Positions 33,924-49,940 of a DNA stretch of 64,000 nt are shown piece by piece. This stretch comes from an uncultured Desulfobacterales bacterium (lineage in GTDB: Bacteria > Desulfobacterota > DSM-4660 > Desulfatiglandales > HGW-15): assembly GCA_964647905.1 (NCBI GenBank), contig CAZYJR010000002.1, forward strand, positions 7,198 through 71,197. The letters run 5' to 3'. Each line of letters starts with the position of its first letter. The stretch's first letter is position 1. Made by a program: the position numbers and the translations under genes. A model generated the notes under the pieces. The model searched no databases, was not told where the DNA came from, and saw only the letters and a list, made by a program, of their open reading frames with translations.

Positions 33924-33927
33924 GATG

Positions 33928-34938
33928 TCAGCTCCCTTCGCCTGAGGCCGCCCCTTCCATCTGGAAGCAAGCCACCCTTCGCTCCGGAGACACGCTTGCC
34001 AGGCCGGGGATATCCAGGCTGCACCTGGGGCTCCCGGCCTTGGCGCAGCGTTCGAAGAAGGGGCACCCGACCTGGCCGGGAGCTTCCCGCTCCTTTTCCA
34101 AAAGGGTACCGTACTGCTTCCTTGAGCCGGACCGCCCGAACCTGGGCAAGGCGTCTATAAGGGCCTGGGTGTAAGGGTGAATCGGGCTGCCTATTACGGC
34201 CGTTGTGGGGCCCACCTCCATCAGCACCCCCCGGTAGATCACGCCTATTCGGTCGCAGAGGTAGCGGGCCGCGGCAAGGCTGTGGGTGATGAACAGCATG
34301 CTGACACCGAACCGCTTCCTCATCTCCAGGAGTATGTTGAATATCTTTGCCGAATACGAGGCATCCAGCATGGAGGTGGGTTCGTCGGCGACCAGGAAAT
34401 CGGGCTCCAGCACCATGGCCCTGGCAATGGCCACCCGCTGTCTCTGCCCCCCGCTCAGTTGATGGGGGTAGCGGTTCATATGGGCCTCGGCCGGGGAGAG
34501 GCCCACGGTCTCCAGCATGTCCATAACCCGATCCTGCCGCTCCTCCCCCTTGGCCAGACCGTGGATCAAGAGCGGCTCTGCCACGCTTTCGTAAATCGAG
34601 AGCTGGGGATTGACCGCTTGGTAAGGGTCCTGGAAGATCATCTGGACCCTCCGGCGGTATGACTTCATCTCACTGCCCCTGAGCTCTGTGATATCCCTCC
34701 CTCCCAGGCGGATGGAACCTGATCCCGCGGTTTCCAGCTTGACGATGAGCCTGCCCGCCGTAGTCTTTCCGCTCCCGCTCTCGCCCACCAAGCCGAAGAT
34801 CTCCTTTTGCCGGACTCCGAGGCTGACCCCATGGAGCGCGGTGACCCTCCTCTCCGGCCGCCAGCCGAATAGGGCCCCCTTGGTGCGGTAGGACTTGGAC
34901 ACGGCCTCCAGTTCGAGTATAGGGGTGTCGGGTTCCAA
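33928..34938 (-). CDS. peptide/nickel-type ABC transporter ATPase (OppF/DppF-like)
   Basis: Walker A GESGSGKTT, signature LSGGQRQRV, Walker B LVADEPTS, and a C-terminal oligopeptide-type extension HPYTQALI. Confidence 0.9.
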   Translation of the reverse strand: MEPDTPILELEAVSKSYRTKGALFGWRPERRVTALHGVSLGVRQKEIFGLVGESGSGKTTAGRLIVKLETAGSGSIRLGGRDITELRGSEMKSYRRRVQMIFQDPYQAVNPQLSIYESVAEPLLIHGLAKGEERQDRVMDMLETVGLSPAEAHMNRYPHQLSGGQRQRVAIARAMVLEPDFLVADEPTSMLDASYSAKIFNILLEMRKRFGVSMLFITHSLAAARYLCDRIGVIYRGVLMEVGPTTAVIGSPIHPYTQALIDALPRFGRSGSRKQYGTLLEKEREAPGQVGCPFFERCAKAGSPRCSLDIPGLASVSPERRVACFQMEGAASGEGS

Positions 34939-34978
34939 ACGTTTTCTCCAACCTTCTTTCAGGAACGGGCGGCGCGTC

Positions 34979-35980
34979 TCAAGGGCCGCAATGCCCGCAC
35001 AGGACCCGGTGCGTGGGCGAGACCTCCAGCCACTCCGGCGGCCTGAGAGCGCATTCCCTGCCCGAAGCCGGGCACCTGTCGCAGAAACGACACCCGGGCG
35101 GCGGGTCCAACAGGCTCGGGGTCTCCCCCGGGATGGGGACCAGGTCCTTCATCTCCCCGGTGAGCGTGGGGTAGGAAGCGAGCAGGGCCCGGGTATAGAA
35201 ATGGCGCGGACTTTCAAGGACCTCCTCCCTGCTCCCATACTCCACCAGCTTGCCCGCGTACATCACGCCGATCTCGTGGGAGATCTCGGCCACCACCGAG
35301 ATGTCGTGGGAAATGAAGATGATGCTGATCCCCAAATCCTCCTGGAGCACCTTTATCTCTTCCAGGATCTGGTGCTGGACGATCACGTCCAGGGCCGTTG
35401 TAGGCTCATCGGCTATCACCAAGTCCGGGCTGCAGGCCAGGGCCATTGCAATGACGGCCCGCTGCTTCATGCCCCCGCTGTACTGGTGTGGATAGTCCCG
35501 CATGCGCTGAGTTGATAAGTTCACCAGACCGAACAACCTCTCCACCTCAACCAGGGCCTCCTCCTCGGTTACTTCAGGGCGGTGCACCCTGATGGCCTCC
35601 ACGATCTGGTCCTGAACGCGCTTGACCGGGTTCAGCGCGTTCATGGCGGCCTGGAATATCATGGCTATGCGGTTCCACCTCACCCTGCGCATCTCATCCT
35701 CGTCCTTGAGGAGCAGGTCTTCCCGGTCAAAGAGGATCCTCCCCCCGGATACGCGCGCATTGGGAGGAAGGAGCTTCATTACGGCCATGCCGATGGTGGT
35801 CTTGCCGCACCCGGACTCGCCCACCAAGCCCAGGGAGCGTCCCTTGGCCAAGGAAAAGGAGACTCCTTCGACGGCGCGCATGACCCCCCGCTTGGTCTTG
35901 TACCCGATGCTCAGGTCCGCCACCTCCAGGAGAGGCTCACTCCCAGAGTCCCGACCCCCTCTTGCGACGCCGGCGGTCAC
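34979..35980 (-). CDS. peptide/nickel-type ABC transporter ATPase (OppD/DppD-like)
   Basis: Walker A GESGCGKTT, YSGGMKQR, and VIADEPTTALD. The GTG at 35980 overlaps the permease stop (GTGA). The 618-aa track ORF is an out-of-frame upstream extension. Confidence 0.9.
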   Translation of the reverse strand: MTAGVARGGRDSGSEPLLEVADLSIGYKTKRGVMRAVEGVSFSLAKGRSLGLVGESGCGKTTIGMAVMKLLPPNARVSGGRILFDREDLLLKDEDEMRRVRWNRIAMIFQAAMNALNPVKRVQDQIVEAIRVHRPEVTEEEALVEVERLFGLVNLSTQRMRDYPHQYSGGMKQRAVIAMALACSPDLVIADEPTTALDVIVQHQILEEIKVLQEDLGISIIFISHDISVVAEISHEIGVMYAGKLVEYGSREEVLESPRHFYTRALLASYPTLTGEMKDLVPIPGETPSLLDPPPGCRFCDRCPASGRECALRPPEWLEVSPTHRVLCGHCGP

Positions 35981-36903
35981 TCCGTCTCCTCCTCCTTGCG
36001 AAGCCGCGGATCCAGGACCTCGTCCATGGCCCTTCCCAGCATGTAGAACGAGAGCGTAATCAGCGAGATGCACATGCCCGGCGGCAGCAGCCAGTAGGGG
36101 GCCTTGAACATGTGCCCGGTCTTCCACACCCATTGGAGCATCATGCCCCAGCTCACCGTCCCCGGGTCCCCGAATCCCAGAAAGGCCAGGGCCGCTTCTA
36201 TGGTGATCGCCGAGGTGACGCGGAAGGTCATGTACAGGAAGGCCAGTGGGAGCACATTGGGCATGATGTGCCTGAAGATGACCCTGGCATGGCCCGCGCC
36301 CGCAACCCGCGCCGCCTCCACGAACGGGCGCTCCTTGAGAGACAGGGTCTGCGCACGTATCACCCGGCTTACCCCGGGCCAGCGGAACAGCCCGATTATC
36401 AGCACTATGGTCCAGATGTTGAGCTGGCCGAAAAGCGCCGAGAGCATCAGCACAAAGAGCAGAGTGGGCATGACCATCACGATGTCGGCGAGCCGCATCA
36501 GGAGGGTGTCCACCGCCCGCCCCATGTACCCTGCCGTCAGACCCACCGCCGTACCCAGGACTACGGTCATGAAGGCGGCCGAGACTCCGACCATGAAGGC
36601 CACCCTTGCCCCTGCCAGGAGTTGGCTGAAGATATCCCGCCCCATGAAGTCGGTCCCCAGCCAGTGCTTCAGGCTCGGGCCCACTGAGTTTGATATCTCC
36701 GGGTCCACCCCGGTCATCGGCTTGTACATGGGGTCGACAAGCGGCGGTATATAGCTGGCAACGGCCATCAGGCCGAAAAGGACCAACATGCCCAGCCCCG
36801 CCCTGCCCAAAGGGTTCCGGATGAAAACGGACCAAGCCTCGCCCCAGCGGGACCGCCGCTGCGACCTCGGTACCGCGCGTCTTTCCCGGCTCGGGTCTGT
36901 CAA
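35977..36903 (-). CDS. ABC transporter permease (OppC/DppC-like)
   Basis: The N-terminus ...RWGEAWSVFIRNPLGRAGLGMLVLF is typical of OppC. EAA-loop region FVEAARVAGAGHARVIFRHIMPN. Start uncertain (TTG at 36903). Confidence 0.85.
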   Translation of the reverse strand: MTDPSRERRAVPRSQRRSRWGEAWSVFIRNPLGRAGLGMLVLFGLMAVASYIPPLVDPMYKPMTGVDPEISNSVGPSLKHWLGTDFMGRDIFSQLLAGARVAFMVGVSAAFMTVVLGTAVGLTAGYMGRAVDTLLMRLADIVMVMPTLLFVLMLSALFGQLNIWTIVLIIGLFRWPGVSRVIRAQTLSLKERPFVEAARVAGAGHARVIFRHIMPNVLPLAFLYMTFRVTSAITIEAALAFLGFGDPGTVSWGMMLQWVWKTGHMFKAPYWLLPPGMCISLITLSFYMLGRAMDEVLDPRLRKEEETE

Positions 36904-36929
36904 GCCGTCACCCCCAAGGGCTTCTCTCC

Positions 36930-37907
36930 TCAGTACCTGATTCTGGGATCCAGATAGGCGTAAAGCACGTCCACGATAACGTTTGAAACCAGCACCACCA
37001 AAGCGATCAACAGAAAGGCCGCCTGGGCGAGGGGATAGTCGCTGTGGCTCACGGCAAACACTAACTCCCTCCCGATCCCCGGCCAAGTGAAAACCGTCTC
37101 TGTAAGCGCGCCGCCGTTAATTGAGAAGGCGAGGCTGAGGCCGACCCCGGTGACCACCGGGAGCGCGGCGTTCGGGGCCGCGTGGTGGCTCCTTATGTCT
37201 TTGTCGCTCAGGCCCTTGGCCCTGGCGGTCAGTATATAGTCCTCCTTGAGGGTATCCAGCATGCTGCTCCTCATTACCAGGAGGGAGGAGCCGAAATGGA
37301 TCAGGAAAAGGGTGGCAAGGGGGAGCACCAGGTGGTGGCCCACATCAAGGATTTTTCTCCAAACCCCGGCCCCGGGGTCGAGCCATACGTCCTCTGAAAT
37401 CATCCCTGTAATCGGGAACCAGCCCAGCTTGTAGGAGAAGACCCAGATCATGAGGAGTGCCAGCCACGGCAGGAACAGCGTGTGTGTCAGCAATGATCCG
37501 ATGGTCAGCCAGGTGTCGGTCCCCGAGCCCTTGCGCCAAGCGGCGATCTTACCCAGGGCGATGCCCACCAGGGCCGAGAGGATGATCGAGGTGGTAAACA
37601 GGAGTATAGTGTTGGGGAGGCGGTCCCAGATCACCTCCTCCACCGGCCGGCCGTAGTGAAACGATACGCCGAACTCACCTTTGATGAAGTTGCCCAGATA
37701 GACCCAGTACTGGGTCCACAGGCCCTCATCCAGCCCCAATTGCTCCACCAGGTGCTCTGCGGCCTCCGGGGTCATGGTGGGATCCACCATGCGGGATACG
37801 GGATCGCCGGGGGCGAGACGGAAGAGCAGAAAAAGCGCAGTCAGGATCACGAAGAATATGACCGCAACCTGCATCAGTCTTCTCAGGACGAAGTTTCTTA
37901 GCTCCAC
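36930..37907 (-). CDS. ABC transporter permease (OppB/DppB-like)
   Basis: FVLRRLMQVAVIFFVILTALF N-terminus, with YILTARAKGLSDKDIRSHHAAPNA as the EAA loop. Confidence 0.9.
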   Translation of the reverse strand: MELRNFVLRRLMQVAVIFFVILTALFLLFRLAPGDPVSRMVDPTMTPEAAEHLVEQLGLDEGLWTQYWVYLGNFIKGEFGVSFHYGRPVEEVIWDRLPNTILLFTTSIILSALVGIALGKIAAWRKGSGTDTWLTIGSLLTHTLFLPWLALLMIWVFSYKLGWFPITGMISEDVWLDPGAGVWRKILDVGHHLVLPLATLFLIHFGSSLLVMRSSMLDTLKEDYILTARAKGLSDKDIRSHHAAPNAALPVVTGVGLSLAFSINGGALTETVFTWPGIGRELVFAVSHSDYPLAQAAFLLIALVVLVSNVIVDVLYAYLDPRIRY

Positions 37908-37917
37908 GACCGCCTGT

Positions 37918-39627
37918 CTATCTGGGTTTGATTGTGCAGAACGACCAAGCGTTTCCGATCCCTTCGAGCATGGGGACCCAACCCTTGTAACGGTCCGCCC
38001 TGACCGCCTCTATCAGGTGCGGGCTGTAAAGGGGCAGATACGGGACATCATGCATCAGGATCCGCTGCATCTCAAAGATCAGCTCACGGCGTTTTTCCGG
38101 ATCCATGGTGCGTGCGGATTCATCGGCCAGGCGGTCATACTCCGGATTGGAGTAGCCGCTCATGTTCCACCCGCCCTTCTGGTCGTTCTCGGAGTGGAAA
38201 AAGCTCCGGAGGTAGTCCGGGTCCAGGGAGAGGCGCCCGTAGCCCAGGACAAACATGTCAAAGTCATGGGAGCGCTTAACCTTGTCCAGCAAGGACCCGA
38301 ACGCCATGGGCTTGGCGGACGCCGGAATTCCGGCCGCCCTGAGCCACTCCTGTATCATGAGGCCCGCCATGGCCCGTGCAGGATCATAGTCCGCCGGCGG
38401 AGTAAGTATTGTAAAGGTCTCCATGGGTTCCCCGCCCGGGACCCTTATGCCCTCCCCCTCAACCAGCTCGCCTTCTCGGTTCACCGGCGGCCTCTCCCAC
38501 GCATACCCCGCCTCCTTCAGGAGCTCGTACGCCTTTCGGATGCGTTCTCCACGGAGTACGGCCGTTCCGGCGTAATCCGGCTCTTCCGGACAATGCCAGA
38601 ACTTGTTCCCCGGAGGCACTATTGAGTGCATCTCCGCCCCGTATCCCTGGAGGACCCTTAGCATGATGAAATCCCTGTCAACCAGGCAGGCCACCGCCCT
38701 CCTGAAGGCGGGATCGGAAAACGGTTTCTTACGCAGATTGAACCCGAGGTAGTAGAGTGCGCTCCTTTCATTGGTAAAGAGATTGATGTCGGGATGCTCC
38801 TCCAGCTCCTGAATGTACCCCGGTTGAATGCTCCACCAGAAATAATCGATGTCCCCCTTCTTGAGGGCCATGACGGCGGCATCTGATGTGCCGTAGGTCT
38901 TGAAGATCAGGCCGTCTATATAGGGCCCCAGGAGGTGTCCCGCCATCTCTTTGCCGGTGCCGAAAAAATGCTTGTTCCTTTCCATAAAGATGTAGGCGCC
39001 CTGCTTCCACTCCTTGAGAGCGAAAGGTCCCGTCCCAACCGGATCTCTGACCTTGTGGTTGCGGAGCGCGGCCAGGGGCTTCTCTGTTTCCAGCGCAGCC
39101 TTGACCACGGGTTCCCATTGCCTCTTCTGGACGATGGGCGTTGTCAGAGTCCGCTCCCTGAAAGTGGCCATGGGTTCGGCCAGGTGGAAGCGGACCGTGC
39201 GCTCGTCCACCACCTCCACCTCCCTTACGAACTCCCAATTGCTGTACCTGCGGGAGTCCCGGACCTCCTTGATGGTCCGGGCCGTAAAGGCGACGTCCTC
39301 GGCCGTGAACGGAGTGCCGTCCGACCACTTGGCATCCCTGAGCTTGACCGTGTAGGCGAGCTTCTCTTTGTCCAATACGGGCAGGCCTTCGGCCAGCCAC
39401 GGCACCAGCTCGAGCTTGTCCGGTTCGTGCACATACAGGGGATAATACACCAGTCCCAGCACCTTGCGGGACCAGGTATCGCTCGCCAGCCAGAAGTTCA
39501 AGGTCTTGGGCTCCTCCAGGAGGCCCACCTTGAGAAAGTCGGCTGCACCGACCGACCCGCCGTAAGAGATAACCGCCGTCAAGACAGCTAGAATGACCCC
39601 CTTCACCCTGCAACTCAGTGAACCCAT
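37918..39627 (-). CDS. ABC transporter substrate-binding protein, family 5 (peptide/nickel/opine type)
   Basis: Signal peptide, 569 aa, and family-5 SBP motifs (LVPWLAEG...KLRDAKWSDGTPFTAEDV). Confidence 0.9.
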   Translation of the reverse strand: MGSLSCRVKGVILAVLTAVISYGGSVGAADFLKVGLLEEPKTLNFWLASDTWSRKVLGLVYYPLYVHEPDKLELVPWLAEGLPVLDKEKLAYTVKLRDAKWSDGTPFTAEDVAFTARTIKEVRDSRRYSNWEFVREVEVVDERTVRFHLAEPMATFRERTLTTPIVQKRQWEPVVKAALETEKPLAALRNHKVRDPVGTGPFALKEWKQGAYIFMERNKHFFGTGKEMAGHLLGPYIDGLIFKTYGTSDAAVMALKKGDIDYFWWSIQPGYIQELEEHPDINLFTNERSALYYLGFNLRKKPFSDPAFRRAVACLVDRDFIMLRVLQGYGAEMHSIVPPGNKFWHCPEEPDYAGTAVLRGERIRKAYELLKEAGYAWERPPVNREGELVEGEGIRVPGGEPMETFTILTPPADYDPARAMAGLMIQEWLRAAGIPASAKPMAFGSLLDKVKRSHDFDMFVLGYGRLSLDPDYLRSFFHSENDQKGGWNMSGYSNPEYDRLADESARTMDPEKRRELIFEMQRILMHDVPYLPLYSPHLIEAVRADRYKGWVPMLEGIGNAWSFCTIKPR

Positions 39628-39642
39628 ACCCTTTTTCTCCTT

Positions 39643-40665
39643 TCAGCATTCCCTTGAGATCGCCTTGGACTCTTGCCCCTGCTTCATCTCCAGGACCTTC
39701 TTCTCTATAAAATCTATAACCTTCACCTCCAGGCGCGTATTGTCCAGGCGGTTGATCCTGGGTATGCCCCCGGGGCTCACGCAGTTTATCTCCACCAGCT
39801 TGTTTCCTATGAGGTCGATCCCCACGAAGAACAAACCGTCCTGAACCAAGCGGTCCTTTAGGATCCCGCAGATCCGCCGCTCCTCCGGGGTGACCCGGTG
39901 CCTGAAGGCCCTTGCCCCCGCATGGATGTTTGTCCTGAAGTCCCCGTCCCGCGGCCTGCGCCTCATGGCCCCCAGGATCTCTCCGTTCAACAACAGGATA
40001 CGTACGTCCCCCTCGGTCTGAACCTGCTCCAGGCACTCCTGGACCATGATGGGCTCGCGGTCCGGGTAGGCCCGATACGCCCTGACGTAATAGTTGATCA
40101 AGGAGTGGAGATTTTCCCTGTCTCGTATGCTGACCTTGATCACACCCTCTCCGCCGTAGCGTTGAAGCGGCTTTACCACCATTGACCCGCCGAACTCGTC
40201 GATGATCTTCTTCAGCCTGCCCGGATCCCGGGAAATATGGGTCTCCGGAATTATCTCCGGGAAGTTGAGGGTGTAGAGCTTGCTGTTGGCAAAGAGCTGT
40301 CCCCGCGTGCTGTTGATCATGAAGACCTGGTCGTTCACCGGATCCAGGAACTCCAGGCTCTGGTAGTTGAGAGGCGGGTTCTTGCGGAGGAAAAGGGCGT
40401 CCAGGTCGGTGACCGTCTCGAAGATCAGCTCGTCCCTCTTCAGGCACCTGATCAAGGAGCGCCAGTAGCGCTTCATGGTCAGGTCGGGCGGCACGGTGAT
40501 GTTCCGCATGCGCGCCACCACTTCGTTCTTGCGGATATAGATGTCGTGCGGTTCCAGGAAGTATACGTTGTGGCCGCGCTGGTTGCACTCGTACATCAGG
40601 TGGCTGGTGGTCTCGTTGACCGGATCAATGGAATCCAGCCGATCCATGACGAATGCGATTCTCAT
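39643..40665 (-). CDS. glutathione synthetase (GshB)-like ATP-grasp ligase
   Basis: Pre-ATP-grasp N-domain MRIAFVMD...D.TSHLMYECNQRGH, then VVKPLQRYGGEGV, and KLVEINCVSPGG matching the GshB EIN-x-SP motif. The start overlaps the rimK-like stop (ATGA). Confidence 0.75.
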   Translation of the reverse strand: MRIAFVMDRLDSIDPVNETTSHLMYECNQRGHNVYFLEPHDIYIRKNEVVARMRNITVPPDLTMKRYWRSLIRCLKRDELIFETVTDLDALFLRKNPPLNYQSLEFLDPVNDQVFMINSTRGQLFANSKLYTLNFPEIIPETHISRDPGRLKKIIDEFGGSMVVKPLQRYGGEGVIKVSIRDRENLHSLINYYVRAYRAYPDREPIMVQECLEQVQTEGDVRILLLNGEILGAMRRRPRDGDFRTNIHAGARAFRHRVTPEERRICGILKDRLVQDGLFFVGIDLIGNKLVEINCVSPGGIPRINRLDNTRLEVKVIDFIEKKVLEMKQGQESKAISREC

Positions 40666-41555
40666 CCGGTGGACCCTTCCGGTGAGACGGCGTATCGGAT
40701 GATCTGGGCAGCGATATCCAACCCCGTGCTTTTCTCCAGGCCCCTGAAACCCGGGCTGTAGTTCACGTCCACCACCAGGAGCTTCCCATTCTTTCCTACT
40801 ACCATATCCACTCCGGAGATATCAAGCCCAAGGGCGGTTGAAGCCTCCACCGCCCATCGCCCCGCCTCGCCTCCCTGGACCATGGGCGAGGCACGTCCCC
40901 CCAGATGATAGTTCGCCCTGAACTCACCCTTCTTTGGGGTCAGCTCCATGGCCCCGGCCACGCGCCCACCTACCACCAGGACCCTCAGATCCCTCCGGCC
41001 TTCGGGCGGTATGAATTCCTGGACCACCATCCCCGCCCCCAATTCCGGGCGCTCCTTGAGCAAATCAACCGCCTGGCCCACCCCTTGGACCAGGAAGACC
41101 CCCGTGCCCTGCCTGCCTTGGGGGGGCTTGAGCACCACAGGACCGCCCCCGAGCCGGCGGACCGCTGCTGACAAGTTCTCCGGATTGCCGGCGTAAAGAG
41201 AGCCGGGGACCGGGATCCGCCGGGCTGCAAGGGCTTGAATGGTCCTGAACTTGTTCCTGGCAATCGATATCGCCGAGGCCCGGTTGATCGTCCTGATCCC
41301 CATCATCTCCACGTGGCGGACCACGGTCAAAGGAAACTCCCTTATGGTGGACCCCACCCTGGGGAGAACCGCGTCCAGGTCCAGTGTCGCTCTCAGGTGC
41401 CGCAGCAGCAGTCCTTCAGCCGTGACGTCCAGGTACAGCTTGGCCGGATGCAGGAGCCTCACCTCGTGCCCCATGGACCTCGCCGCCTCCATCAGCCTAC
41501 GGTTCGGGTGGTAGTTATGATTCCTGAAGCTCAATACGCCTATTTCCACATACAT
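40662..41555 (-). CDS. RimK-family alpha-L-glutamate ligase-like ATP-grasp protein
   Basis: ARNKFRTIQALAARRIPVPGS, VVLKPPQGRQGTGV, RVLVVGGRV and LLVVDVNYSPGFRGLE match RimK motifs. ATG at 41555 with a GGGAGA RBS. Confidence 0.8.
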   Translation of the reverse strand: MYVEIGVLSFRNHNYHPNRRLMEAARSMGHEVRLLHPAKLYLDVTAEGLLLRHLRATLDLDAVLPRVGSTIREFPLTVVRHVEMMGIRTINRASAISIARNKFRTIQALAARRIPVPGSLYAGNPENLSAAVRRLGGGPVVLKPPQGRQGTGVFLVQGVGQAVDLLKERPELGAGMVVQEFIPPEGRRDLRVLVVGGRVAGAMELTPKKGEFRANYHLGGRASPMVQGGEAGRWAVEASTALGLDISGVDMVVGKNGKLLVVDVNYSPGFRGLEKSTGLDIAAQIIRYAVSPEGSTG

Positions 41556-41664
41556 TCTCCCACCGCGGAATTTCAAGCCGAACAGGGTTGCCCGCAACCC
41601 GGCATCCTGATATGGATCATTATCATAGGTCTCTTCACCCGGATCCCGGCCAGGAGGATCGCTA

Positions 41665-42222
41665 TTGAACCCGGCCCGCCCCCCGCAAGACCGTGTTTCC
41701 TATTACTTCAAGCCCCCGCGTGAAATCGACTCCCCCACCCTGGAGGCAGTCCGGGACCTGGTGGAGGCCGGCGGGGCGGTGGGTACATCCTGGACCGAGG
41801 AAAACCTCAGGGGGGCTGTACTGGTCGCATACGCCGCCCGCGAAGGCCGGGTGGTGGGCTGTACCATACTCAAGCGACCCAAAGAAGACTATAGAAAAAA
41901 GATAGAGGCGGCAACCGGCCTTGACCTCTCCGGTTACCTGGAGCGGGGCTACACAGCGGTCTCGGAGGAGTTCCGGGGACGCGGCATAGCGGACGCCCTT
42001 ATCAGAGGCCTGATCCGGCGCTCCTCGGAATACAGCGTCTATGTCACCATCCGGATGGACAACGGGCCCGCCCTCAGGCTCACCGAGAAGAACGGCATGC
42101 AGCCGGCGGCCCGCTTCCGCAACCCCCGCACGGGCCGCTTGCTGGGGCTTTTCGTCAACCGCCGGCCTCCTCCTCTCCCTGCTTCTTCTGGTAGTCCTGG
42201 ACGCGGTGGTGGAGCTTTCTGA
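41665..42222 (+). CDS. GNAT-like N-acetyltransferase (putative)
   Basis: RGRGIADALIRGLI matches GNAT motif A (R/Q-x-x-G-x-G/A). TTG start. The last 68 nt overlap the convergent 1079-aa gene, so the true C-terminus is uncertain. Confidence 0.55.
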   Translation: MNPARPPQDRVSYYFKPPREIDSPTLEAVRDLVEAGGAVGTSWTEENLRGAVLVAYAAREGRVVGCTILKRPKEDYRKKIEAATGLDLSGYLERGYTAVSEEFRGRGIADALIRGLIRRSSEYSVYVTIRMDNGPALRLTEKNGMQPAARFRNPRTGRLLGLFVNRRPPPLPASSGSPGRGGGAF

Positions 42223-45200
42223 GCCTGTGGCTCAGGACTTTGCATATGTGGAGCGCTATCTGAGGGTACTCCCTGACTATCTCCTCGAACTCCTTTTTAT
42301 GCAGGACCAAGAGCCGGGTCTCCTCCTCGGTCCGGATGGTGGCGGAGCGCACCTGGTCCTCGAACAGGGCCATCTCGCCGAAATAGTCGCCCGCGCTTAT
42401 TTGGTCGAGCTCTATTTCCTCCCCGGAGCCTCCCTTCTTTAACACCGAGACTCGGCCGGAGATGACCATGTACATGGTCTCCCCTTGTTCGCCTTCCCGT
42501 ATCACGTCCTCACCCGATGGGACCACCAGCTCCTCGGTGACAGATGCGATGGCGGCCATCTCTCCCACGGATAGGCCTTCGAATATCTGGATCCCTCGGA
42601 GCAGCAGGATCTTGTCCGGGATACTTATACTGGATTCCATGTCCATCTCCCTGGGAGGTCTTTCAGTGTCGATGCTCGCGGCAGCCTGCCGGGCTACGAA
42701 GCGCACGTGCGGGTTGTCCGCTTGGAGGAACGAGGAGCAGACGTCGGAAGCCTTTCCGTCGAACGCCCCCTTCTCCACCAGCTTGAGTGTGAGAACCACT
42801 GTGACCCAGTCATGTTTGGCCAGGAGATGCCTGCAGAGACCGTCCCCCGGCTCCAAGGCCGGTATCTTGAACTCTTTCCGGCCCCTTGACTCGATCTCGT
42901 CCGGCGATAGGTTTTCCAGCAAGGTGGCCATGAGCCTGGAAAGCCCCTTGCCCACGAAGTCGTCCAGGGCTTCCACAGCATTGGACCTCTGCCGGGAATC
43001 CGAGGAAAAAACCCCGCGCCAAATCAGGCGTATTCTGCCGGTATGGTCCTGTGCGGCCAATACCCTGAGCACCGTGTCCACGCGCTCCCGCTTTTTCTGC
43101 AGCAGGTGGTCCACCAAGAGATCCCGGTGGGGGCTCAGGCTCAACCCCTTGACCGCCTCCGCCTCTATTGCGTTCCTGTATGCCCGCTCCAACTGGCCGC
43201 GAGCAAACCGCATGACCTCCACATCCCTCATTTCCAGTGATTCAAGGAGCTCGAAGAGGTTTTTTCTGAGGCCCGGATTGGGTTGGCCCAGGAACTCTAC
43301 GAGGATTTCAGGGCGCTGGTAATCGGCCGCCTGCAGCCTTTCCCGGGCCAGATCCTGTAACTCCGGCTCACGATCGCCCAGCAATGGGGCAACCGCCCGC
43401 ACCGCCCCGTCCCCGTCCAGTCTCACCGCCTCCAGGGCGGCCCGGCGGACCCGGGGGTCTTCATGGGCGAGATAGGGCGATGCCCATTCGTTCAATTCGG
43501 GTTCGTCCAATCGCTCCATGGCCTGCAAGGCCAAGGAAACCTGCTCGGCGGGTAAGCCCGCCTCCAGAAGCGAGTGAAGGCGGCTGAGAAACGTCTTGTC
43601 CCCGGATACCCCTGCCGCCACTATTCCGGCCCGGCGTTCGCGCTCATCATTCGAGTCCAGCCATTGCTCAACCTCCTCCCGATAAGTCTCTGGGTCTTCC
43701 CGGTAGAGCCCGGCCAAGGCGTAGGCCCGAATGATCGGGTCCCGCCGCTCGGTATAGACCTCATGCATGAAATCCTTGGATATATTCACCGGCAGCCGGG
43801 CGGCGGCCCTGAGGACCGCGGTGTTCAGATCGGGCGTTCCCGCGTCCAGCAGCTCCCGGAACCCTTCGACCGCCGCCGGGCCTGCGTCGGGGGAAATCAG
43901 GCCCAGGAGCTCGATCTTGGTGGCTTCCTCCTGCGAGGGCAAGACCTCGAGGATGTAGGAATCAAGCTCTTCCACGCCCAGCGACCTGAGCAGCCGAGCG
44001 TACCACAACGAGCTCGTTCCTTTGGCTTTCCTGAAGGACTCCACCAACCGGCCCTTGATCTCCTTGTCGTTGAAAATTTGTGTGACATCGGCTTGCTCGA
44101 GGGATCTGATGTCCAGGAGATTTCGGGAGACCAAATCCAGTAGGATCTGGGAGTACTTCCGCTTGAACACGATCGTGGTCCCGACCCACACGCTCATGAA
44201 GACGAGCCCCACCACCGAGAGATACCTAGGATGAAGCAATCCCTCGCTCAGCATGATCACTCCTGATCCCGCGAGGATTCCAACCCGCACCACGGTTCCT
44301 CTCAGAAAGGGGCGTATCAGTGCGCGGTGCTCCGGGGGGAAGAGTCCCATCAGGACGGCGCGCGCCGGGTTGTTGATCGTTGTCCTCAGGATGTTGGTGG
44401 AAAGCCTCGCATACATGGCCGAGAACAGGTCGAAGCGGAGCAGGAAGGCCAGGAAGGCCACCACGTAGTTGAACGGGTGGAACATCAGGGCCACCGGGAC
44501 GCCCCAGCGGCCGTATACCCGGCCCACAAACAGGAGGATCACGAAGCTCACGATGTTCAGTGTACCTCTGAAGTAGCCGAAGAACTCTATCATTCCCCCT
44601 TCGGTGGCAAAGGACCGATCCACAGCGAAATTGAACTGGTAGTTGAGTATCGGAATCACCAGATTGGGAACCAGGGTAAGGAGGACCAGGATTTTGACCA
44701 ACGCGGAGTCACGAATCAGCGGCAGGACCTCCCTGATTTCCTGCTTGAGGGACTTCCTCTTCTTGACCTTCTTTACCCTGCCCTCGGGGAGCATGAGGGT
44801 GGGGAAGAGGGAGTCCATGCGCCTTACCACCACCGCCCCTGCCAGGGCCACGATCAAGTAGGCCCACAACAGGTTGTCGATTCGAAAGAGCCTTGCTGCG
44901 ACAGGGGTCCCGAAACTGCCCAGTATGCCGCCTATAACCCCGCCGGCGGTAATCAGGGGAAAAAGTCGTTTGGACTGCCGGGTGTCGAAGAGGTCGTTGG
45001 CCAGGTTCCAGAAGAGCAGCCCCAGGAGGACCTCGTACAGAGACTTGAGAATAAAGAGCAGCGGGTAGAGGAGATCGATTCCAAACGGTATCAGGAGCCT
45101 GAAGCCGGCCACTGTTCCGCCGCAGAAGACAAGCATGTAGCCCAGGAGCCTGCTCCCCGGCAGCCTGGCCATGAATCCCGAGACCAGCCCCATGACAACA

Positions 45201-45394
45201 AACGTGGTCACGGAAGTCGCCACGTAGACCAGGGGGAGATACTCCACACCGAATCTCTTGAGAAAGGCGGTTTCGGCGAAGTTGTTGAAAATGACGTCTG
45301 CTGAGCGGATCAGGAAAAGAAGGGCCGTGGACCAAAGGAAAAGACGTATCTCGTCTTCGTAGATCTTGAGCCACCTGCCCAGGAGCCGGGTCAT
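42155..45394 (-). CDS. fusion: TLC/Npt-type (ATP/ADP-translocase-like MFS) transporter + HEAT repeats + cyclic-nucleotide-binding domain
   Basis: The N-terminal ~430 aa are polytopic with FWNLANDLFDTRQSKRLFPLITAGGVIGGILG, the TLC signature FW-x-AN...(A/S)KR.(F/Y). The middle has HEAT/armadillo-like repeats (EDPRVRRAALEAV, DPIIRAYALAGL). The C-terminus has a cNMP-binding domain (GDYFGEMALFE...RSATIRT). Confidence 0.75.
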   Translation of the reverse strand: MTRLLGRWLKIYEDEIRLFLWSTALLFLIRSADVIFNNFAETAFLKRFGVEYLPLVYVATSVTTFVVMGLVSGFMARLPGSRLLGYMLVFCGGTVAGFRLLIPFGIDLLYPLLFILKSLYEVLLGLLFWNLANDLFDTRQSKRLFPLITAGGVIGGILGSFGTPVAARLFRIDNLLWAYLIVALAGAVVVRRMDSLFPTLMLPEGRVKKVKKRKSLKQEIREVLPLIRDSALVKILVLLTLVPNLVIPILNYQFNFAVDRSFATEGGMIEFFGYFRGTLNIVSFVILLFVGRVYGRWGVPVALMFHPFNYVVAFLAFLLRFDLFSAMYARLSTNILRTTINNPARAVLMGLFPPEHRALIRPFLRGTVVRVGILAGSGVIMLSEGLLHPRYLSVVGLVFMSVWVGTTIVFKRKYSQILLDLVSRNLLDIRSLEQADVTQIFNDKEIKGRLVESFRKAKGTSSLWYARLLRSLGVEELDSYILEVLPSQEEATKIELLGLISPDAGPAAVEGFRELLDAGTPDLNTAVLRAAARLPVNISKDFMHEVYTERRDPIIRAYALAGLYREDPETYREEVEQWLDSNDERERRAGIVAAGVSGDKTFLSRLHSLLEAGLPAEQVSLALQAMERLDEPELNEWASPYLAHEDPRVRRAALEAVRLDGDGAVRAVAPLLGDREPELQDLARERLQAADYQRPEILVEFLGQPNPGLRKNLFELLESLEMRDVEVMRFARGQLERAYRNAIEAEAVKGLSLSPHRDLLVDHLLQKKRERVDTVLRVLAAQDHTGRIRLIWRGVFSSDSRQRSNAVEALDDFVGKGLSRLMATLLENLSPDEIESRGRKEFKIPALEPGDGLCRHLLAKHDWVTVVLTLKLVEKGAFDGKASDVCSSFLQADNPHVRFVARQAAASIDTERPPREMDMESSISIPDKILLLRGIQIFEGLSVGEMAAIASVTEELVVPSGEDVIREGEQGETMYMVISGRVSVLKKGGSGEEIELDQISAGDYFGEMALFEDQVRSATIRTEEETRLLVLHKKEFEEIVREYPQIALHICKVLSHRLRKLHHRVQDYQKKQGEEEAGG

Positions 45395-45641
45395 CAGCCT
45401 CCCCGAACCGTAATGAGAAAAAAGGAAAAGACCGGTGATAAGGAGTTATTCAGCAAAGTCCTTAACCCGGGGGGGCTTACCTGTCAAGGCATTATTCCGA
45501 TCCCCGCCCTCCAGTGGGGTGACCAAGGAAAAGACGGTCTCATAGACTTCTAATGCGCGGTTCACACTCCGCTAATGAGCCGGGCCTAGCTTTCCAACAT
45601 AGGCAAGGGCGAACCGCCCCGATTCTTCCGTCCGGGGCGGC

Positions 45642-45681
45642 CTGTTCACGGAGTTTTCATCAAACCCTAATGGAACCCTAA
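45642..45681 (+). promoter_or_regulatory. candidate Pho-box-like array (7-bp repeats at 11-bp periodicity) upstream of pstS
   Basis: CTGTTCAC-ggag-TTTTCAT-caa-ACCCTAA-tgga-ACCCTAA. The last two 7-mers are identical direct repeats with a 4-bp spacer. Sits 45-85 bp upstream of the pstS ATG. Confidence 0.35.
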
Positions 45682-45726
45682 CAAGGGCTCCGTATGTTCC
45701 AATTAACCAAGAGAGGAGGAAGAAAC

Positions 45727-46548
45727 ATGAGAGGAAAGAGAGTCTGGTCTTGTATGGTATCTGTTGCAGTGCTCCTTATGGCTTGGGGGCCGGCCTGGGC
45801 CGGGAATATCGTCATAAAGGGATCCACCACCGTCCTCCCCATAGCCCAGAAAGTGGCCGAGGTTTACATGAAGGAGAATCCGGATGTCAGAATATCCATT
45901 TCCGGCGGTGGCTCGGGTAACGGCATAAAGGCCTTGATAGACGGATCCACCGACATTGCGGACAGCTCCAGGTTCATCAAGGACAAGGAAGTCAAGATGG
46001 CCGTGCAAGCGGGCAGATACCCCGTCCCATTCGCCGTGGCCTATGATTGTATCATCCCGGTGGTCCACGCCTCCAATACGATTCAGGATTTGTCCCTCGC
46101 GCAGTTGAAGGCGCTCTACGAGGGCGGGATCAAGAACTGGAAGGAACTGGGCGGACCGGATCGCCCGGTGGTGGTCATCTCCCGGGATACCTCCAGCGGC
46201 ACCTACGAGGTTTGGGCGAAGAAGGTAATGGAAAAGGAACGGGTTTATCCGGGTGCGCTTCTCCAGGCCTCCAACGGTGCGGTGGTCCAGGCGGTGGCCA
46301 AGAACAAGAACGCAATCGGCTATATCGGCATAGGATACATGGACGCGGAGGTCAAGGCTTTGACTGTTAACGGCATACATGGTTCCGAGGAGACCACCCT
46401 AAACGGGACCTACCCGGTGAGCCGCCCCCTGTTCATGTTCACCCAAGGGTGGCCCAAGGGGGATGTGGCCAAGTTCATCAACTTCCTTATCCACCCTGAA
46501 AAGGGGCAGAGGTATGTGAGTGAAGCGGGCTACGTCCCGCTCTACTAG
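45727..46548 (+). CDS. pstS: phosphate ABC transporter substrate-binding protein
   Basis: Signal peptide, then GSTTVLPIAQKVAEVY...SGGGSGNGIKALIDGSTDIADSSR. GAGGAGGA RBS before the ATG at 45727. Confidence 0.9.
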   Translation: MRGKRVWSCMVSVAVLLMAWGPAWAGNIVIKGSTTVLPIAQKVAEVYMKENPDVRISISGGGSGNGIKALIDGSTDIADSSRFIKDKEVKMAVQAGRYPVPFAVAYDCIIPVVHASNTIQDLSLAQLKALYEGGIKNWKELGGPDRPVVVISRDTSSGTYEVWAKKVMEKERVYPGALLQASNGAVVQAVAKNKNAIGYIGIGYMDAEVKALTVNGIHGSEETTLNGTYPVSRPLFMFTQGWPKGDVAKFINFLIHPEKGQRYVSEAGYVPLY

Positions 46549-46570
46549 GCGGGGGAGATCTTTCGACTCC

Positions 46571-47485
46571 ATGATCCACTCGAGAGACAGGAGCGGCCTC
46601 GGCCGCAAGAGAAAGGAGGCGGCCGTCCGTGTGGGATTCCTCACGGTCGGCTTGGCCTCCATCATCACCTTGGGTATGATCGCCCTCTTTCTTTTCATGG
46701 AGGGCCTCCCCATACTGAAAGAGGTCTCGGTCCGGGATTTCATCCTGGGAGAGTACTGGTATCCCACCCATGAGCCACCGGATTTCGGGATCTTTCCCTT
46801 GATAGCGGCATCGGCTGCCGTTACCGCGGTCTCTTCGGCAATGGCCGTCCCCCTGGGCGTGCTGACCGCGCTCTATTTGGCCGAAGCCGCGTCCAGCCGG
46901 GTTAGGAATTTCATAAAGCCCCTGGTGGAGCTCCTGGCCGCCCTACCCTCGGTAGTCCTGGGCTTCTTCGGTATGGTGGTGGTAGCCCCCGTTCTCCAGG
47001 AGACCTTCGGGGTCGCCACCGGCCTCAATCTGTTCAACGCCTCCCTGATGCTGGCCTTCATGTCCGTTCCCACGATTTGCAGCATCTCGGAGGACGCCGT
47101 CTACAGCGTGCCCACGGAGCTCAAGGAGGCCTCCTTGGCCCTTGGCGCAACCCGGTGGGAGACCATCTGGAGGGTGGTCCTGCCCGCGTCTCTGTCGGGA
47201 ATCACCACTGCGGTAATCCTGGGCATGAGCCGGGCCATGGGAGAGACCATGGTGGTATTGATGGTGGCAGGCGGGGCGGCCATGGTACCGGGATCCCTGT
47301 TCGACCCGGTAAGACCCATGCCGGCGTCCATCGCCGCTGAGATGGCCGAAGCGCCTTTCCGTGGAGACCATTATCATGCGCTTTTCGCAACTGCCGTGGT
47401 CCTTTTTTTGTTCACCCTGGCATTCAACCTGGTGGCCGAACAGGTGAGCCACCGCTACAAGCAGGTGGGCGCGTCGACCCTATAG
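46571..47485 (+). CDS. pstC: phosphate ABC transporter permease PstC
   Basis: EASLALGATRWETIWRVVLPASLSGI EAA-type loop with a 6-TM pattern. Confidence 0.9.
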   Translation: MIHSRDRSGLGRKRKEAAVRVGFLTVGLASIITLGMIALFLFMEGLPILKEVSVRDFILGEYWYPTHEPPDFGIFPLIAASAAVTAVSSAMAVPLGVLTALYLAEAASSRVRNFIKPLVELLAALPSVVLGFFGMVVVAPVLQETFGVATGLNLFNASLMLAFMSVPTICSISEDAVYSVPTELKEASLALGATRWETIWRVVLPASLSGITTAVILGMSRAMGETMVVLMVAGGAAMVPGSLFDPVRPMPASIAAEMAEAPFRGDHYHALFATAVVLFLFTLAFNLVAEQVSHRYKQVGASTL

Positions 47486-47503
47486 CAATCGGGCCGTGAG
47501 ACA

Positions 47504-48427
47504 ATGATCGGTATGCACCAAGAGCAGGAAAACCGGGCACACTGGTATCCGGATGAAGGACAAGGGGCGCTCGGGGTCAAGCCCGGGCGAAGGATGACAC
47601 AGGCGGTGATGTTCTGGCTCTTTCGGATCGCCGCTGGAATCAACGGTCTCGCATTGGCGCTGATTCTTTTCTTCCTGGTGAGCCGGGGGTGGCGGGCCAT
47701 AAACTGGACCTTCCTCACCCAGGCCCCCAGGGAGTCCATGACCCAGGGGGGAATATTCCCCTGCATCGTGGGCACCCTTTGTCTAAGCCTGGGAGCGATT
47801 CTTGTGGCCCTGCCGGTCGGGGTGGCGTCGGCCATCTACCTCCACGAATACGCCGGGCCCGGCAGAGCGGTTCGGATCATCAGGCTGGGGATCAACAATC
47901 TGGCCGGCGTTCCTTCTGTGGTCTTCGGGCTCTTCGGGCTGGCCTTTTTCGTGGTCTATCTGGATATGGGGGTGAGCGTCCTGGCAGGGGCGCTCACCCT
48001 GGGGGCAATGACGCTGCCGGTGATAATAGGCTCGGCTGAAGAGGCCTTGAAATCGGTGCCCGATACGTACAGGGAGGCCTCCCTCGGTCTGGGCGCAACC
48101 AAGTGGCAGACCATATACCGCGTGGTCCTGCCCGCCGCCCTGCCCGGGATTTTGACCGGGGCCATACTGGGAATCAGCAGGGCCGCCGGAGAGACGGCCC
48201 CAATAATGTTCACGGCCGCGGTCTTCTACACCCCGGGACTTCCCTCTTCAGTTTTTGATGAGATAATGGCCCTTCCTTATCATATCTATGTCCTGGCCAC
48301 GGCCGGCACAGAGATAGAGGCCACCAGGCATCTCCAATACGGGACCGCTCTGGTATTGATTGTCCTTGTCTTGGGGCTCAACCTCATAGCGGTGCTCTAC
48401 CGCTCACGCCTCCAGAAGCGGCGCTGA
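47504..48427 (+). CDS. pstA: phosphate ABC transporter permease PstA
   Basis: EASLGLGATKWQTIYRVVLPAALPGILTG, with permease topology. Confidence 0.9.
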   Translation: MIGMHQEQENRAHWYPDEGQGALGVKPGRRMTQAVMFWLFRIAAGINGLALALILFFLVSRGWRAINWTFLTQAPRESMTQGGIFPCIVGTLCLSLGAILVALPVGVASAIYLHEYAGPGRAVRIIRLGINNLAGVPSVVFGLFGLAFFVVYLDMGVSVLAGALTLGAMTLPVIIGSAEEALKSVPDTYREASLGLGATKWQTIYRVVLPAALPGILTGAILGISRAAGETAPIMFTAAVFYTPGLPSSVFDEIMALPYHIYVLATAGTEIEATRHLQYGTALVLIVLVLGLNLIAVLYRSRLQKRR

Positions 48428-48463
48428 GAAAAAAAGACTCACGGGAGGTTCGTTTTTCATACC

Positions 48464-49231
48464 ATGGATCAAGCTGTCTCGGCAAAGATCGTGACCAAGG
48501 ACCTGAACTTCTATTACCGGGACTTTAGGGCTCTTCAAGGAATCTCTCTGGAGTTTCAGGCCGAAGGGGTTACCGCGCTCATCGGCCCTTCGGGTTGCGG
48601 CAAGAGCACCCTGCTGAGATGCCTCAACCGGATGAACGACCTCATCCCCGGAACACGCGTAGGCGGGGAAGTGATTTATGCGGGGCGGGACATATACGAT
48701 CCTGCTGTTGACGTGGTCACACTCAGGCGCCGTATCGGCATGGTCTTCCAAAAGCCCAACCCCTTTCCCAAGACAGTATTCGACAACATCGCCTACGGCT
48801 TGCGGGTCAACGGGATCAGGGACCGGGGAAAAATCGAGGAACAGGTGGAAACCAGCCTCAGGAGGGCCGCCCTTTGGGACGAGGTCAAGGACCGCCTGAG
48901 GCAGTCGGCCTTGGGCCTTTCCGGAGGGCAGCAGCAGAGGCTCTGCATCGCAAGGGCCTTGGCCGTGGAACCGGACGTCCTGCTTATGGACGAGCCGGCC
49001 TCAGCCCTGGACCCGATAGCCACCCAGAAGATAGAGGAGTTGATCCACGAACTCAAAGACTCCTACACCATCATTATCGTAACCCACAACATGCAGCAGG
49101 CCGCCCGAGTCTCGGACATCACAGCCTTTCTCTACATGGGCCGGCTGATAGAGGTGGGGCCCACGGACACCCTCTTCACCCGGCCGCATTTGAAGCAGAC
49201 ATCCGATTACATAACAGGCAGGTTCGGGTAG
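48464..49231 (+). CDS. pstB: phosphate ABC transporter ATP-binding protein
   Basis: GPSGCGKST Walker [26 protein letters not shown], and a PstB-specific C-terminus ...YITGRFG. Confidence 0.95.
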
Positions 49232-49256
49232 AAGTGGGCGATGAGAGGAAAAGCGT

Positions 49257-49940
49257 ATGCCCAAGCACTTGGTAAAGGCCCTCCAACGATTGAAGATCCG
49301 GATATTATCTCTGGGGGGTATGGTGGAAGAGAGGGTCAGGATGGCCAACCGGGCCATGGCGCTCCGCGACACTCCCCTTGCAGAGAGGGTCATATCCACC
49401 GACTATGAGATAGACGACCTGGAGGTGGAAGTCGAGGAGGAGTGCCTCAAGATAATCGCCCTGCATCAGCCGGTGGCCGGCGACCTGCGATTCCTCACCG
49501 CGGTCATCAAGATCAACAACGACCTGGAACGGATCGGAGACGAGGCTGTCAACATAGCAAGATGCGTTAGAATAATCGGCCGGCAGGAACCGGTGGCCTT
49601 TCCGGTGGACTTCGCCCCCATGGCCGAAAAGACCCAGTCCATGCTCAAGATGAGCCTGGACGCGCTGGTCAACATGGACCTGGATACGGCCTTCAAAGTC
49701 CTCACCCTGGACGACGAGGTGGACGTCATATACAGCAGGATCTACGACAAGGGCAAAGAGGCGATCCGCGGCGAGCCGGAGCGGGTGGAATACTTGATAA
49801 ACCTGCTCCTGATTTCCCGTTACCTGGAGAGGATCGCGGACCACGCCACTAACATCGCCGAGGAAGTGATCTACATGGTGGAGGGAGAAATCATACGACA
49901 CGGCAGGTGGGACCACCAGGACCCCGGGACCAGGTCCTAG
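49257..49940 (+). CDS. phoU: phosphate signalling regulator PhoU
   Basis: Duplicated PhoU repeat with two E(R)IGD(E/H)A motifs (DLERIGDEAVNIA and YLERIADHATNIA). Confidence 0.9.
   Translation: MPKHLVKALQRLKIRILSLGGMVEERVRMANRAMALRDTPLAERVISTDYEIDDLEVEVEEECLKIIALHQPVAGDLRFLTAVIKINNDLERIGDEAVNIARCVRIIGRQEPVAFPVDFAPMAEKTQSMLKMSLDALVNMDLDTAFKVLTLDDEVDVIYSRIYDKGKEAIRGEPERVEYLINLLLISRYLERIADHATNIAEEVIYMVEGEIIRHGRWDHQDPGTRS

Follow-up and report, generated by a model that had tools for sequence, protein, structure and literature searches.

The DNA analysed here is a 64,000-nt stretch (the window) of contig CAZYJR010000002.1 in assembly GCA_964647905.1, from an uncultured Desulfobacterales bacterium. 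On its reverse strand, at 42155-45394, lies a gene for a protein of 1079 residues, in which a membrane domain of the nucleotide transporter (NTT) lineage is followed by a solenoid of HEAT-like repeats and a C-terminal cyclic-nucleotide-binding domain (cNBD). A pst operon diverges from this gene, and a cluster of ligase and peptide-type ABC transporter genes lies downstream (Table 1). The open reading frame (ORF) is uninterrupted, as shown by the ORF list and the translation, and starts with an ATG preceded at 3 nt by the Shine-Dalgarno sequence GGAGG. It is not a chance ORF, because the whole protein has at least 959 homologues at E<=1e-5, the best of them 68% identical and of the same length, and the best 120 share its length (about 1070-1090 residues) and its Pfam content. 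A previous sequence-only reading of this DNA had proposed a fusion of TLC-like, HEAT and cyclic nucleotide monophosphate (cNMP)-binding domains, and this was correct. TLC, HEAT_2 and cNMP_binding all exceed their Pfam gathering cut-offs (GA), and the motifs quoted in that reading are found at residues 128 (FWNLANDLFDTRQSKRLFPLITAGGVIGG), 1002 (GDYFGEMALFE) and 1016 (RSATIRT).

Domain architecture and relation to nucleotide transporters

The hydropathy profile and an AlphaFold2 (AF2) model, which was built from a 78-sequence alignment with a mean pLDDT of 80.1 and a pTM of 0.51, agree on 12 transmembrane (TM) helices within residues 13-423, running from H13-47 to H389-423. The match to Pfam TLC is confined to the central half of the profile, and MFS_1 (PF07690), a model of the major facilitator superfamily (MFS), gives 17.9 bits, under its GA of 33.4. 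When the predicted model was used as the query, the top Foldseek match in the PDB was ATP-bound AtNTT1 (9j3l_A; E 5.7e-8, TMt 0.74, root-mean-square deviation (rmsd) 3.8 Å, 470 columns), followed by 9j3m_A and then by NTT1 of Chlamydia pneumoniae (CpNTT1; 9j3n_A, TM-score 0.67). Outside the NTTs, the highest-ranking MFS structure is SPNS2, with a lower TMt of 0.60. AtNTT1 and CpNTT1 are also the sole NTTs found in the PDB by sequence (E about 0.003-0.01). Profile-profile alignment by hhalign against 39 chlamydial Npt1 proteins yields a Prob of 95.7% in local mode and 97.1% in global mode (E 1.4e-10), with identity to NTTs at just 14-22%. The best-conserved block common to both is the counterpart of FWGFAN[DE]...KRFYxLFGxGA in Npt1 and AtNTT1, and within it W129, N133, Q140, S141, K142 and R143 are invariant in the homologue alignments. 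The membrane domain is a true, though distant, relative of the NTTs. A generic MFS protein unrelated to TLC, the outcome that would have undone the sequence-only reading, was rejected on the TLC score above GA, the MFS_1 score below it, the Npt1 alignment and the NTT folds at the head of the structural ranking.

Several polar residues within the membrane are conserved, namely N133, D134, N244, N251, Q253, H306, N309, R337, N341, R365 and R370. The stretches rich in Lys and Arg are the N-terminus, the central loop (aa 191-222) and the segment after TM12. Thus, by the positive-inside rule, the N-terminus, central loop and C-terminus of the membrane domain are predicted to be cytoplasmic, and the HEAT-cNBD part would lie on the same side. 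The sequence-only reading had assigned some 350 residues to the HEAT repeats; the repeats are indeed present, but the helical repeat region of the model is about 475 residues long. Its pLDDT is mostly 80-93, and Pfam HEAT_2 is matched with 33.3 bits (GA 27.7) at aa 621-674 (nt 43373-43534).

The C-terminal domain is recognised by cNMP_binding (PF00027) with 82.4 bits (GA 27.5) over aa 957-1043. Its sequence matches in the PDB are PKA-R, PKG and CRP, with E values of 1e-14 to 1e-31, the PKA/PKG regulatory domains and CRP being the closest. In the model, beta-roll strands at aa 954-1032 are followed by helices at aa 1033-1078, and Foldseek returns PKA RI CNB-B (TMt 0.78) and Mtb CRP (rmsd 1.7-1.8 Å). 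The phosphate-binding cassette (PBC) has the canonical Gly-Glu / Arg-[ST]-Ala layout, with a distance of 9 residues from E1007 to R1016. G1006, E1007, R1016 and A1018 are invariant in 78 close homologues, including both the Glu and the Arg on which the sequence-only reading had made cNMP binding depend. Family-wide, among 71 aligned cNBDs (70 representatives and the query), Glu is present in 59 and Arg in 49. An Arg-Ser-Ala cassette as in CRP and bacterial cyclic-nucleotide-gated channels hints at cAMP; because of this resemblance, the ligand is probably cAMP and less likely cGMP. The beta-roll and the canonical Glu and Arg are shared with CRP/FNR and with the PKA/PKG regulatory domains. Unlike these, the cNBD in the window has no DNA-binding or kinase-inhibitory output, and its output is presumably the fused transporter.

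Table 1. Positions of the NTT-HEAT-cNBD gene, its parts and its neighbours in the window.
Feature	Position	Strand	Basis
Complete coding sequence, NTT-HEAT-cNBD protein, 1079 aa and stop	42155..45394	-	ORF list, translation, homologues
Membrane domain, aa 1-423, 12 predicted TM helices, NTT/TLC-like MFS fold	44126..45394	-	Hydropathy, AF2, Foldseek, hhalign
Pfam TLC (PF03219) segment, aa 108-333, profile positions 146-383 of 491	44396..45073	-	43.8 bits, GA 21
Best-conserved block common with NTTs, aa 128-156, FWNLAND...KRLFPLITAGG	44927..45013	-	Alignments
All-helical HEAT-like solenoid, aa 434-908, about 29 helices	42671..44095	-	AF2 secondary structure, Pfam HEAT_2
cNBD, aa 925-1078, including N-terminal helices and long C-terminal helix	42161..42622	-	Pfam, PDB sequence matches, model
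PBC, aa 1005-1018, FGEMALFEDQVRSA; Glu1007, Arg1016, Ser1017, Ala1018	42341..42382	-	Homologue alignment
-35-like TTGACA in invariant GCCTTGACAG block, about 90 nt 5' of the start codon	45482..45487	-	Alignment of six intergenic regions
Divergent pstS-pstC-pstA-pstB-phoU operon	45694..49940	+	Pfam/NCBIfam
Recurrent downstream cluster as a whole	32466..42222		Pfam/NCBIfam
GNAT	41665-42222	+	Pfam/NCBIfam
RimK-family ligase	40662-41597	-	Pfam/NCBIfam
GshB-like ATP-grasp	39643-40665	-	Pfam/NCBIfam
SBP_bac_5	37918-39627	-	Pfam/NCBIfam
OppB/C/D/F-type ABC genes	33928-37907	-	Pfam/NCBIfam
ATP-grasp_3 protein, extra in the window lineage	32466-33923	-	Pfam/NCBIfam

The exchanger residues and the wider family

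Four charged residues of AtNTT1, K155, E245, E385 and K527, matter for transport, specificity and counter-exchange and show strong conservation among the NTTs of bacteria (PMC4256464, citing Trentmann et al. 2000). Their positions were anchored on 9j3j, in which the chain index is the precursor number minus 84, E161 in MAELWG being E245 and E301 in NLVEVTWK being E385; K155 and K527 were anchored via the invariant K67 (IPFIK) and K448 (GKSGG) of chlamydial Npt1. In the profile-profile alignments with NTTs, none of the four is conserved in the 1079-residue protein. E245 corresponds to Ser118 and E385 to Asn251, both in confident regions of the hhalign alignment; position 118 is variable and flanked by the invariant K117 and E121, and at position 251 at least 90% of the family have Asn. 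The invariant NTT Lys of TWK, beside E385, aligns with Asn255. The site of K527 is lost in a 12-residue deletion, with the invariant R365 and R370 as the closest basic residues, and K155 aligns with Tyr57 in a low-confidence stretch. The motifs RDTKD and TWK are absent from the membrane domain.

With this quartet lost, classical ATP/ADP counter-exchange appears unlikely. TIGR00769, the model of NTP/NDP (nucleoside tri- and diphosphate) exchangers, points the same way: it matches only aa 111-333 and scores 44 bits against a cut-off of 387.2, so the membrane domain is not an orthologue of these exchangers. The ATP/ADP-translocase signature that the sequence-only reading had seen here is supported at the level of TLC/NTT classification by the Npt1 alignment and the NTT folds, and weakened at the level of the exchangers by TIGR00769 and the missing quartet. 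By homology, the default substrate would be a nucleotide or a nucleotide-like anion; the sequence of an NTT does not reveal its substrates (PMC4256464).

The distribution of the architecture was surveyed, as the sequence-only reading had proposed. Besides the whole-protein homologues given above, relatives turned up in 511 genomes when one genome per species was scanned. The membrane domain alone matches 5430 clusters of 50% identity at E<=1e-3 and 2139 at E<=1e-10, and a C-terminal cNBD homologue is present in 70 of the 75 full-length proteins from the best 150 representatives of such clusters. The best 80 relatives all belong to Desulfobacterales, Desulfatiglandales and Desulfarculales-type Thermodesulfobacteriota; these organisms are free-living, and some of the relatives sit on contigs of 1.4-5.7 Mb. 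Cultured carriers of the gene include strain NaphS2 (locus L027) and Dethiosulfatarculus sandiegensis (L046), besides Desulfosarcina or Desulfatitalea. The architecture is common in sulfate-reducer genomes. Homologues carry names such as "Npt1/Npt2 family nucleotide transporter", "cyclic nucleotide-binding domain-containing protein" and "ATP/ADP translocase/HEAT repeat protein" at NCBI and JGI.

The occurrence of this architecture in a free-living type of bacterium, which the sequence-only reading had pointed out, was already published in 2017: NTT-HEAT and NTT-HEAT-cNBD fusions form a monophyletic group that is widespread among free-living bacteria, Deltaproteobacteria included, and the cNBD was proposed to bind cAMP and thereby adjust transport (Major, Embley & Williams 2017, Genome Biol Evol, PMC5381601). 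Because the architecture is known, the 1079-residue protein is a new member of a published, experimentally uncharacterised family. It has the same three domains in the same order in one polypeptide, with no categorical difference from the published fusions; it is at most 68% identical to any database entry and belongs to a sub-lineage with pst upstream. With the canonical NTTs (AtNTT1, 9j3j/l/m; C. pneumoniae NTT1, 9j3n/o; Npt1; Tlc1), it shares the 12-TM fold at TM-scores of 0.67-0.74, an hhalign Prob of 97% and the FW..AN[DE]..KR block. It differs from them in a membrane domain about 90 residues shorter, in about 650 extra cytoplasmic residues made up of HEAT and cNBD, in the missing quartet, in a TIGR00769 score under the cut-off and in its origin from a free-living anaerobe.

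A transport module fused to a cytoplasmic cNMP domain is likewise found in SLC9C1, the sperm Na+/H+ exchanger with a C-terminal cNBD, and in the channels SthK and MloK1, and the cassette in the window, FGEMAL...RSAT, resembles this bacterial channel type. However, the Foldseek matches to all three come via the cNBD only, with whole-chain TM-scores of about 0.1 and no global similarity. SLC9C1 is an NhaP-type exchanger and SthK and MloK1 are voltage-gated-like channel modules, all unrelated to the module in the window, and their linker is a C-linker or a voltage-sensing domain in place of the HEAT solenoid.

Gene neighbourhoods in the window and at related loci

The best 80 relatives served as 80 related loci, to which all counts of loci below refer. 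All their ORFs were clustered without prior assumptions, using a conservation-weighted choice of ORFs; representatives were identified by Pfam and NCBIfam, and the neighbours in the window were compared by tblastn. The cluster downstream of the transporter gene recurs near a homologous gene in 30-33 loci in shifting arrangements, and such neighbours persist in loci with as little as about 45% identity. In 33 loci there is a GshB-like ATP-grasp ligase; it is downstream and on the same strand in 31 of them, often within 0-500 nt. The copy in the window scores 258 bits, short of the cut-off of 272 of the glutathione synthase model. SBP_bac_5 and an OppBCDF-type (peptide-type) ABC transporter come directly after this ligase in 31-32 loci, and a pair of GNAT and RimK-family ligase occurs in 30-32, at shifting positions and often together with a QueC-like protein of 380 residues. 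The cluster looks like a pathway that makes and imports a small peptide. This linkage of ligase and ABC transporter provides a lead towards the substrate without identifying it.

Upstream, a secreted protein with an FGE-sulfatase domain, related to PvdO, GldK and EgtB, is encoded directly before the transporter on the same strand in 28 loci, often at a spacing of 0-100 nt or with an overlap. In 20 loci, a membrane-anchored class III adenylate/guanylate cyclase (Guanylate_cyc 98.7 bits) is encoded no more than 10 kb away. It occupies one of three conserved positions: next to the transporter on its upstream side, ahead of the FGE-like gene, or closing the ABC operon. This cyclase linkage is the best independent support for regulation by cNMP. 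Examples of neighbours in the FGE-like/cyclase array are L074:8971-9858 (+) and L069:20199-21659 (+).

The 380-residue QueC-like protein is the most frequent neighbour (35 loci, in both types of context) and has no match in Pfam or NCBIfam. The second type of context, found in a different sub-clade, reads secD-secF-TPR-cupin-[transporter]-QueC-like-radical SAM. Members of the 380-residue family, for example at L035:4252-5394 (-) and L013:13471-14628 (+), share an invariant PP-loop, SGGxDS, and the cysteine cluster C-x9-CGxCxxCxR, and by these motifs the family looks like a distant ATP pyrophosphatase of the QueC/ExsB-like kind. When the PDB was searched with a profile of the QueC-like protein, only a marginal match to the PP-loop of GMP synthase resulted (E 0.25). 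By tblastn, the window holds none of the FGE-like, cyclase, QueC-like, radical-SAM, cupin and FGase families. Some genomes carry two NTT-HEAT-cNBD paralogues in differing gene contexts, as L011 and L024 in the metagenome-assembled genome (MAG) CSMAG_30 and L048 and L056 in MAG MFD01721.bin.1.133. One paralogue is accompanied by the GshB-like and ABC genes; others lack them, and one of these has a QueC-like gene and a radical-SAM gene as neighbours. The differing contexts suggest that members of the family have become functionally sub-specialised.

Two details of the gene calls in the downstream cluster should be mentioned. The GNAT ORF converges on the transporter gene and, as called, overlaps 68 nt of its 3' end; in the relatives, the conserved portion of GNAT stops 24-135 nt from the transporter, and the overlapping tail may not be conserved. 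The ORF of 618 residues at 34979-36835 (-) is over-extended. Only its C-terminal part of about 320 residues, from about residue 299, matches OppD/DppD ATPases, and its upstream part overlaps, in another frame, the ORF of an OppC-type permease at 35977-37086 (-).

On the other side, the gene is transcribed divergently from pst across about 330 bp, as the sequence-only reading had described; the gap is 332 bp to the ATG of pstS preceded by a ribosome-binding site (45727) and 299 bp to the first in-frame ATG (45694). The link to phosphate that was drawn from this arrangement is not supported by the comparison of loci. The pst genes adjoin the transporter in only five loci (L001, L002, L004, L005 and L047), which are the closest relatives with 65-68% identity. 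As the adjacency is confined to these, it reflects the inherited synteny of one lineage, and the position of pst, which is no conserved partner of the gene, is a lineage-specific accident. In addition, the transporter gene has a TTGACA element of its own. In the six intergenic regions, the block holding it keeps about 90 nt from the transporter start, with pstS at 330 nt and at about 940 nt alike; the element is probably the transporter gene's own promoter. A stringent sigma-70 consensus scan of 41500-45800 for promoters and terminators found nothing and left the TTGACA element unreported, and an Rfam scan of 41400-45800 at E<=1 gave chance microRNA and lncRNA matches only, with no riboswitch or leader.

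Upstream of pstS, two arrays with a Pho-box-like architecture are seen at 45536-45577 and 45640-45683 (minus-strand reading). Each consists of four 7-nt direct repeats with 4-nt spacers, giving an 11-nt period, and one of them reads TGTTAGG-GTTC-CATTAGG-GTTT-GATGAAA-ACTC-CGTGAAC. Such arrays are kept in all six loci with pst beside the transporter. In L001, L002 and L047, where the insertion of a small extra gene separates pstS from the transporter, a third array precedes the inserted gene. In the window the arrays are on the pstS side, one of them 50-90 nt upstream of the -35 element of the transporter. Pho control of the transporter in the pst-adjacent lineage is conceivable though not indicated, and it is not a property of the family.

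Possible function and regulation

We consider it rather probable that the protein is a cyclic-nucleotide-regulated secondary transporter of the NTT/TLC lineage, that it is not a classical ATP/ADP exchanger and that its link to pst is incidental. In the mechanism that we propose, the 12-helix MFS-fold transporter would span the inner membrane, its two termini being cytoplasmic. From the last TM helix the chain would run on into the HEAT solenoid of about 475 residues, with the cNBD at the solenoid tip. A class III cyclase, often encoded in the same cluster in relatives, would make cAMP (less likely cGMP), and the cyclic nucleotide would bind to the PBC at Glu1007 and Arg1016. This may cause a movement of the C-helix, which would be relayed through the HEAT spring to the cytoplasmic face of the transporter, thus turning transport on or off, possibly by acting on the cytoplasmic gate of an MFS rocker-switch. 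The analogy is with the channels SthK and MloK1 and the exchanger SLC9C1, which carry such domains.

Several points weigh against this interpretation. The arrangement of the domains in the model is uncertain (pTM 0.51), so the coupling through the HEAT solenoid can only be inferred. About a third of the distant family members have a degenerate PBC and probably do not bind a ligand, so control by cNMP does not extend to the whole superfamily; no cyclase gene is present in the window itself (tblastn). The alignment with NTTs is weak in TM1-3 and TM10-11, which makes the mappings of K155 and K527 less confident than those of E245 and E385. NTT1 and NTT3 of T. hominis, without three of the four quartet residues, still carry purine nucleotides (PMC4256464), so the loss of the quartet is compatible with nucleotide transport. 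No functional study of any NTT-HEAT-cNBD member was found in the literature searched, which yielded only the 2017 survey and two papers citing it.

Alternatively, the protein may be a true transporter of ATP/ADP or another NTP like Npt1, Tlc1 or AATP1, with cAMP tuning nucleotide uptake or exchange to the energy state of the cell, as Major et al. propose. Nucleotides are the substrates of the only characterised relatives, Pfam TLC is above GA, ATP-bound AtNTT1 is the top fold and the FW..AN[DE]...KR block is kept; the microsporidian transporters show that nucleotides can be carried without most of the key residues; and cAMP derives from ATP, which is the rationale of PMC5381601. However, the TIGR00769 score of 44 bits against 387 and the 14-22% identity to NTTs speak against it, as do the replacement of the quartet by Y57, S118, N251 and a deletion and the loss of RDTKD and TWK. 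Moreover, the host is of a free-living sulfate-reducer type with no obvious external source of ATP, relatives sit on contigs of 1.4-5.7 Mb, and no nucleotide-metabolism genes recur nearby in the 80 loci. We regard this alternative as unlikely. Quite unlikely, and proposed as a speculation, is that the family carries no nucleotides at all. In that case the protein may be the cAMP-gated membrane step of a cyclase-equipped module, moving the substrate or product of the neighbouring ATP-grasp ligases (GshB-like, RimK-like, GNAT), such as a gamma-glutamyl, glutathione-like or N-acetylated small peptide, against or with the Gsi/Opp-type ABC importer, or it may be an exporter of cyclic nucleotides.

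The missing substrate residues would also fit a protein that has ceased to transport and acts as a membrane-anchored sensor or scaffold (a "transceptor"), in which the MFS-like domain senses a ligand or serves as the anchor, the HEAT repeats recruit the ATP-grasp ligases or the FGE-like protein, and cNMP controls the assembly. HEAT repeats are classical scaffolds for protein interaction (PMC5381601), and many loci show a tight, probably translational coupling to the FGE-like and GshB-like genes. We find it improbable, as the membrane domain is strongly conserved, including its polar intramembrane residues, which is typical of an active translocation pathway, and all 12 helices are retained in the AF2 model. 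A role in the Pho regulon, with the protein moving inorganic phosphate (Pi) or a phosphorylated compound under joint control with pst, is very improbable. Non-mitochondrial ATP/ADP transporters do take Pi as a third substrate (cited in PMC4256464), the gene is divergent from pstSCAB-phoU, and the intergenic region holds the 11-nt repeat arrays, with a further one 5' of the transporter promoter in the three relatives that bear the insert. But the five pst-adjacent loci, all at 65-68% identity, point to inherited synteny over selection; both arrays in the window are on the pstS side, and the TTGACA element of the transporter is conserved at any distance from pstS; and nothing in the protein corresponds to K527, to which Pi transport is tied in PamNTT1.

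In textbooks, NTT transporters are a mark of energy parasitism. The family discussed here is a large NTT sister family in free-living anaerobes, with a cNMP sensor fused and a cyclase often alongside, and as such it would represent a widespread regulated transport system; the protein in the window is an ordinary member of the family. For these proteins, ATP/ADP exchange should not be presumed, since the quartet is gone, and the pst link is not worth chasing; the neighbourhood of ATP-grasp ligase, peptide-type ABC transporter, FGE-like protein and cyclase deserves to be weighed instead. The family as a whole is a worthwhile experimental target. If the cargo were a peptide or a cyclic nucleotide, the protein would be the first of the NTT fold to combine a non-nucleotide substrate with direct gating by a second messenger.

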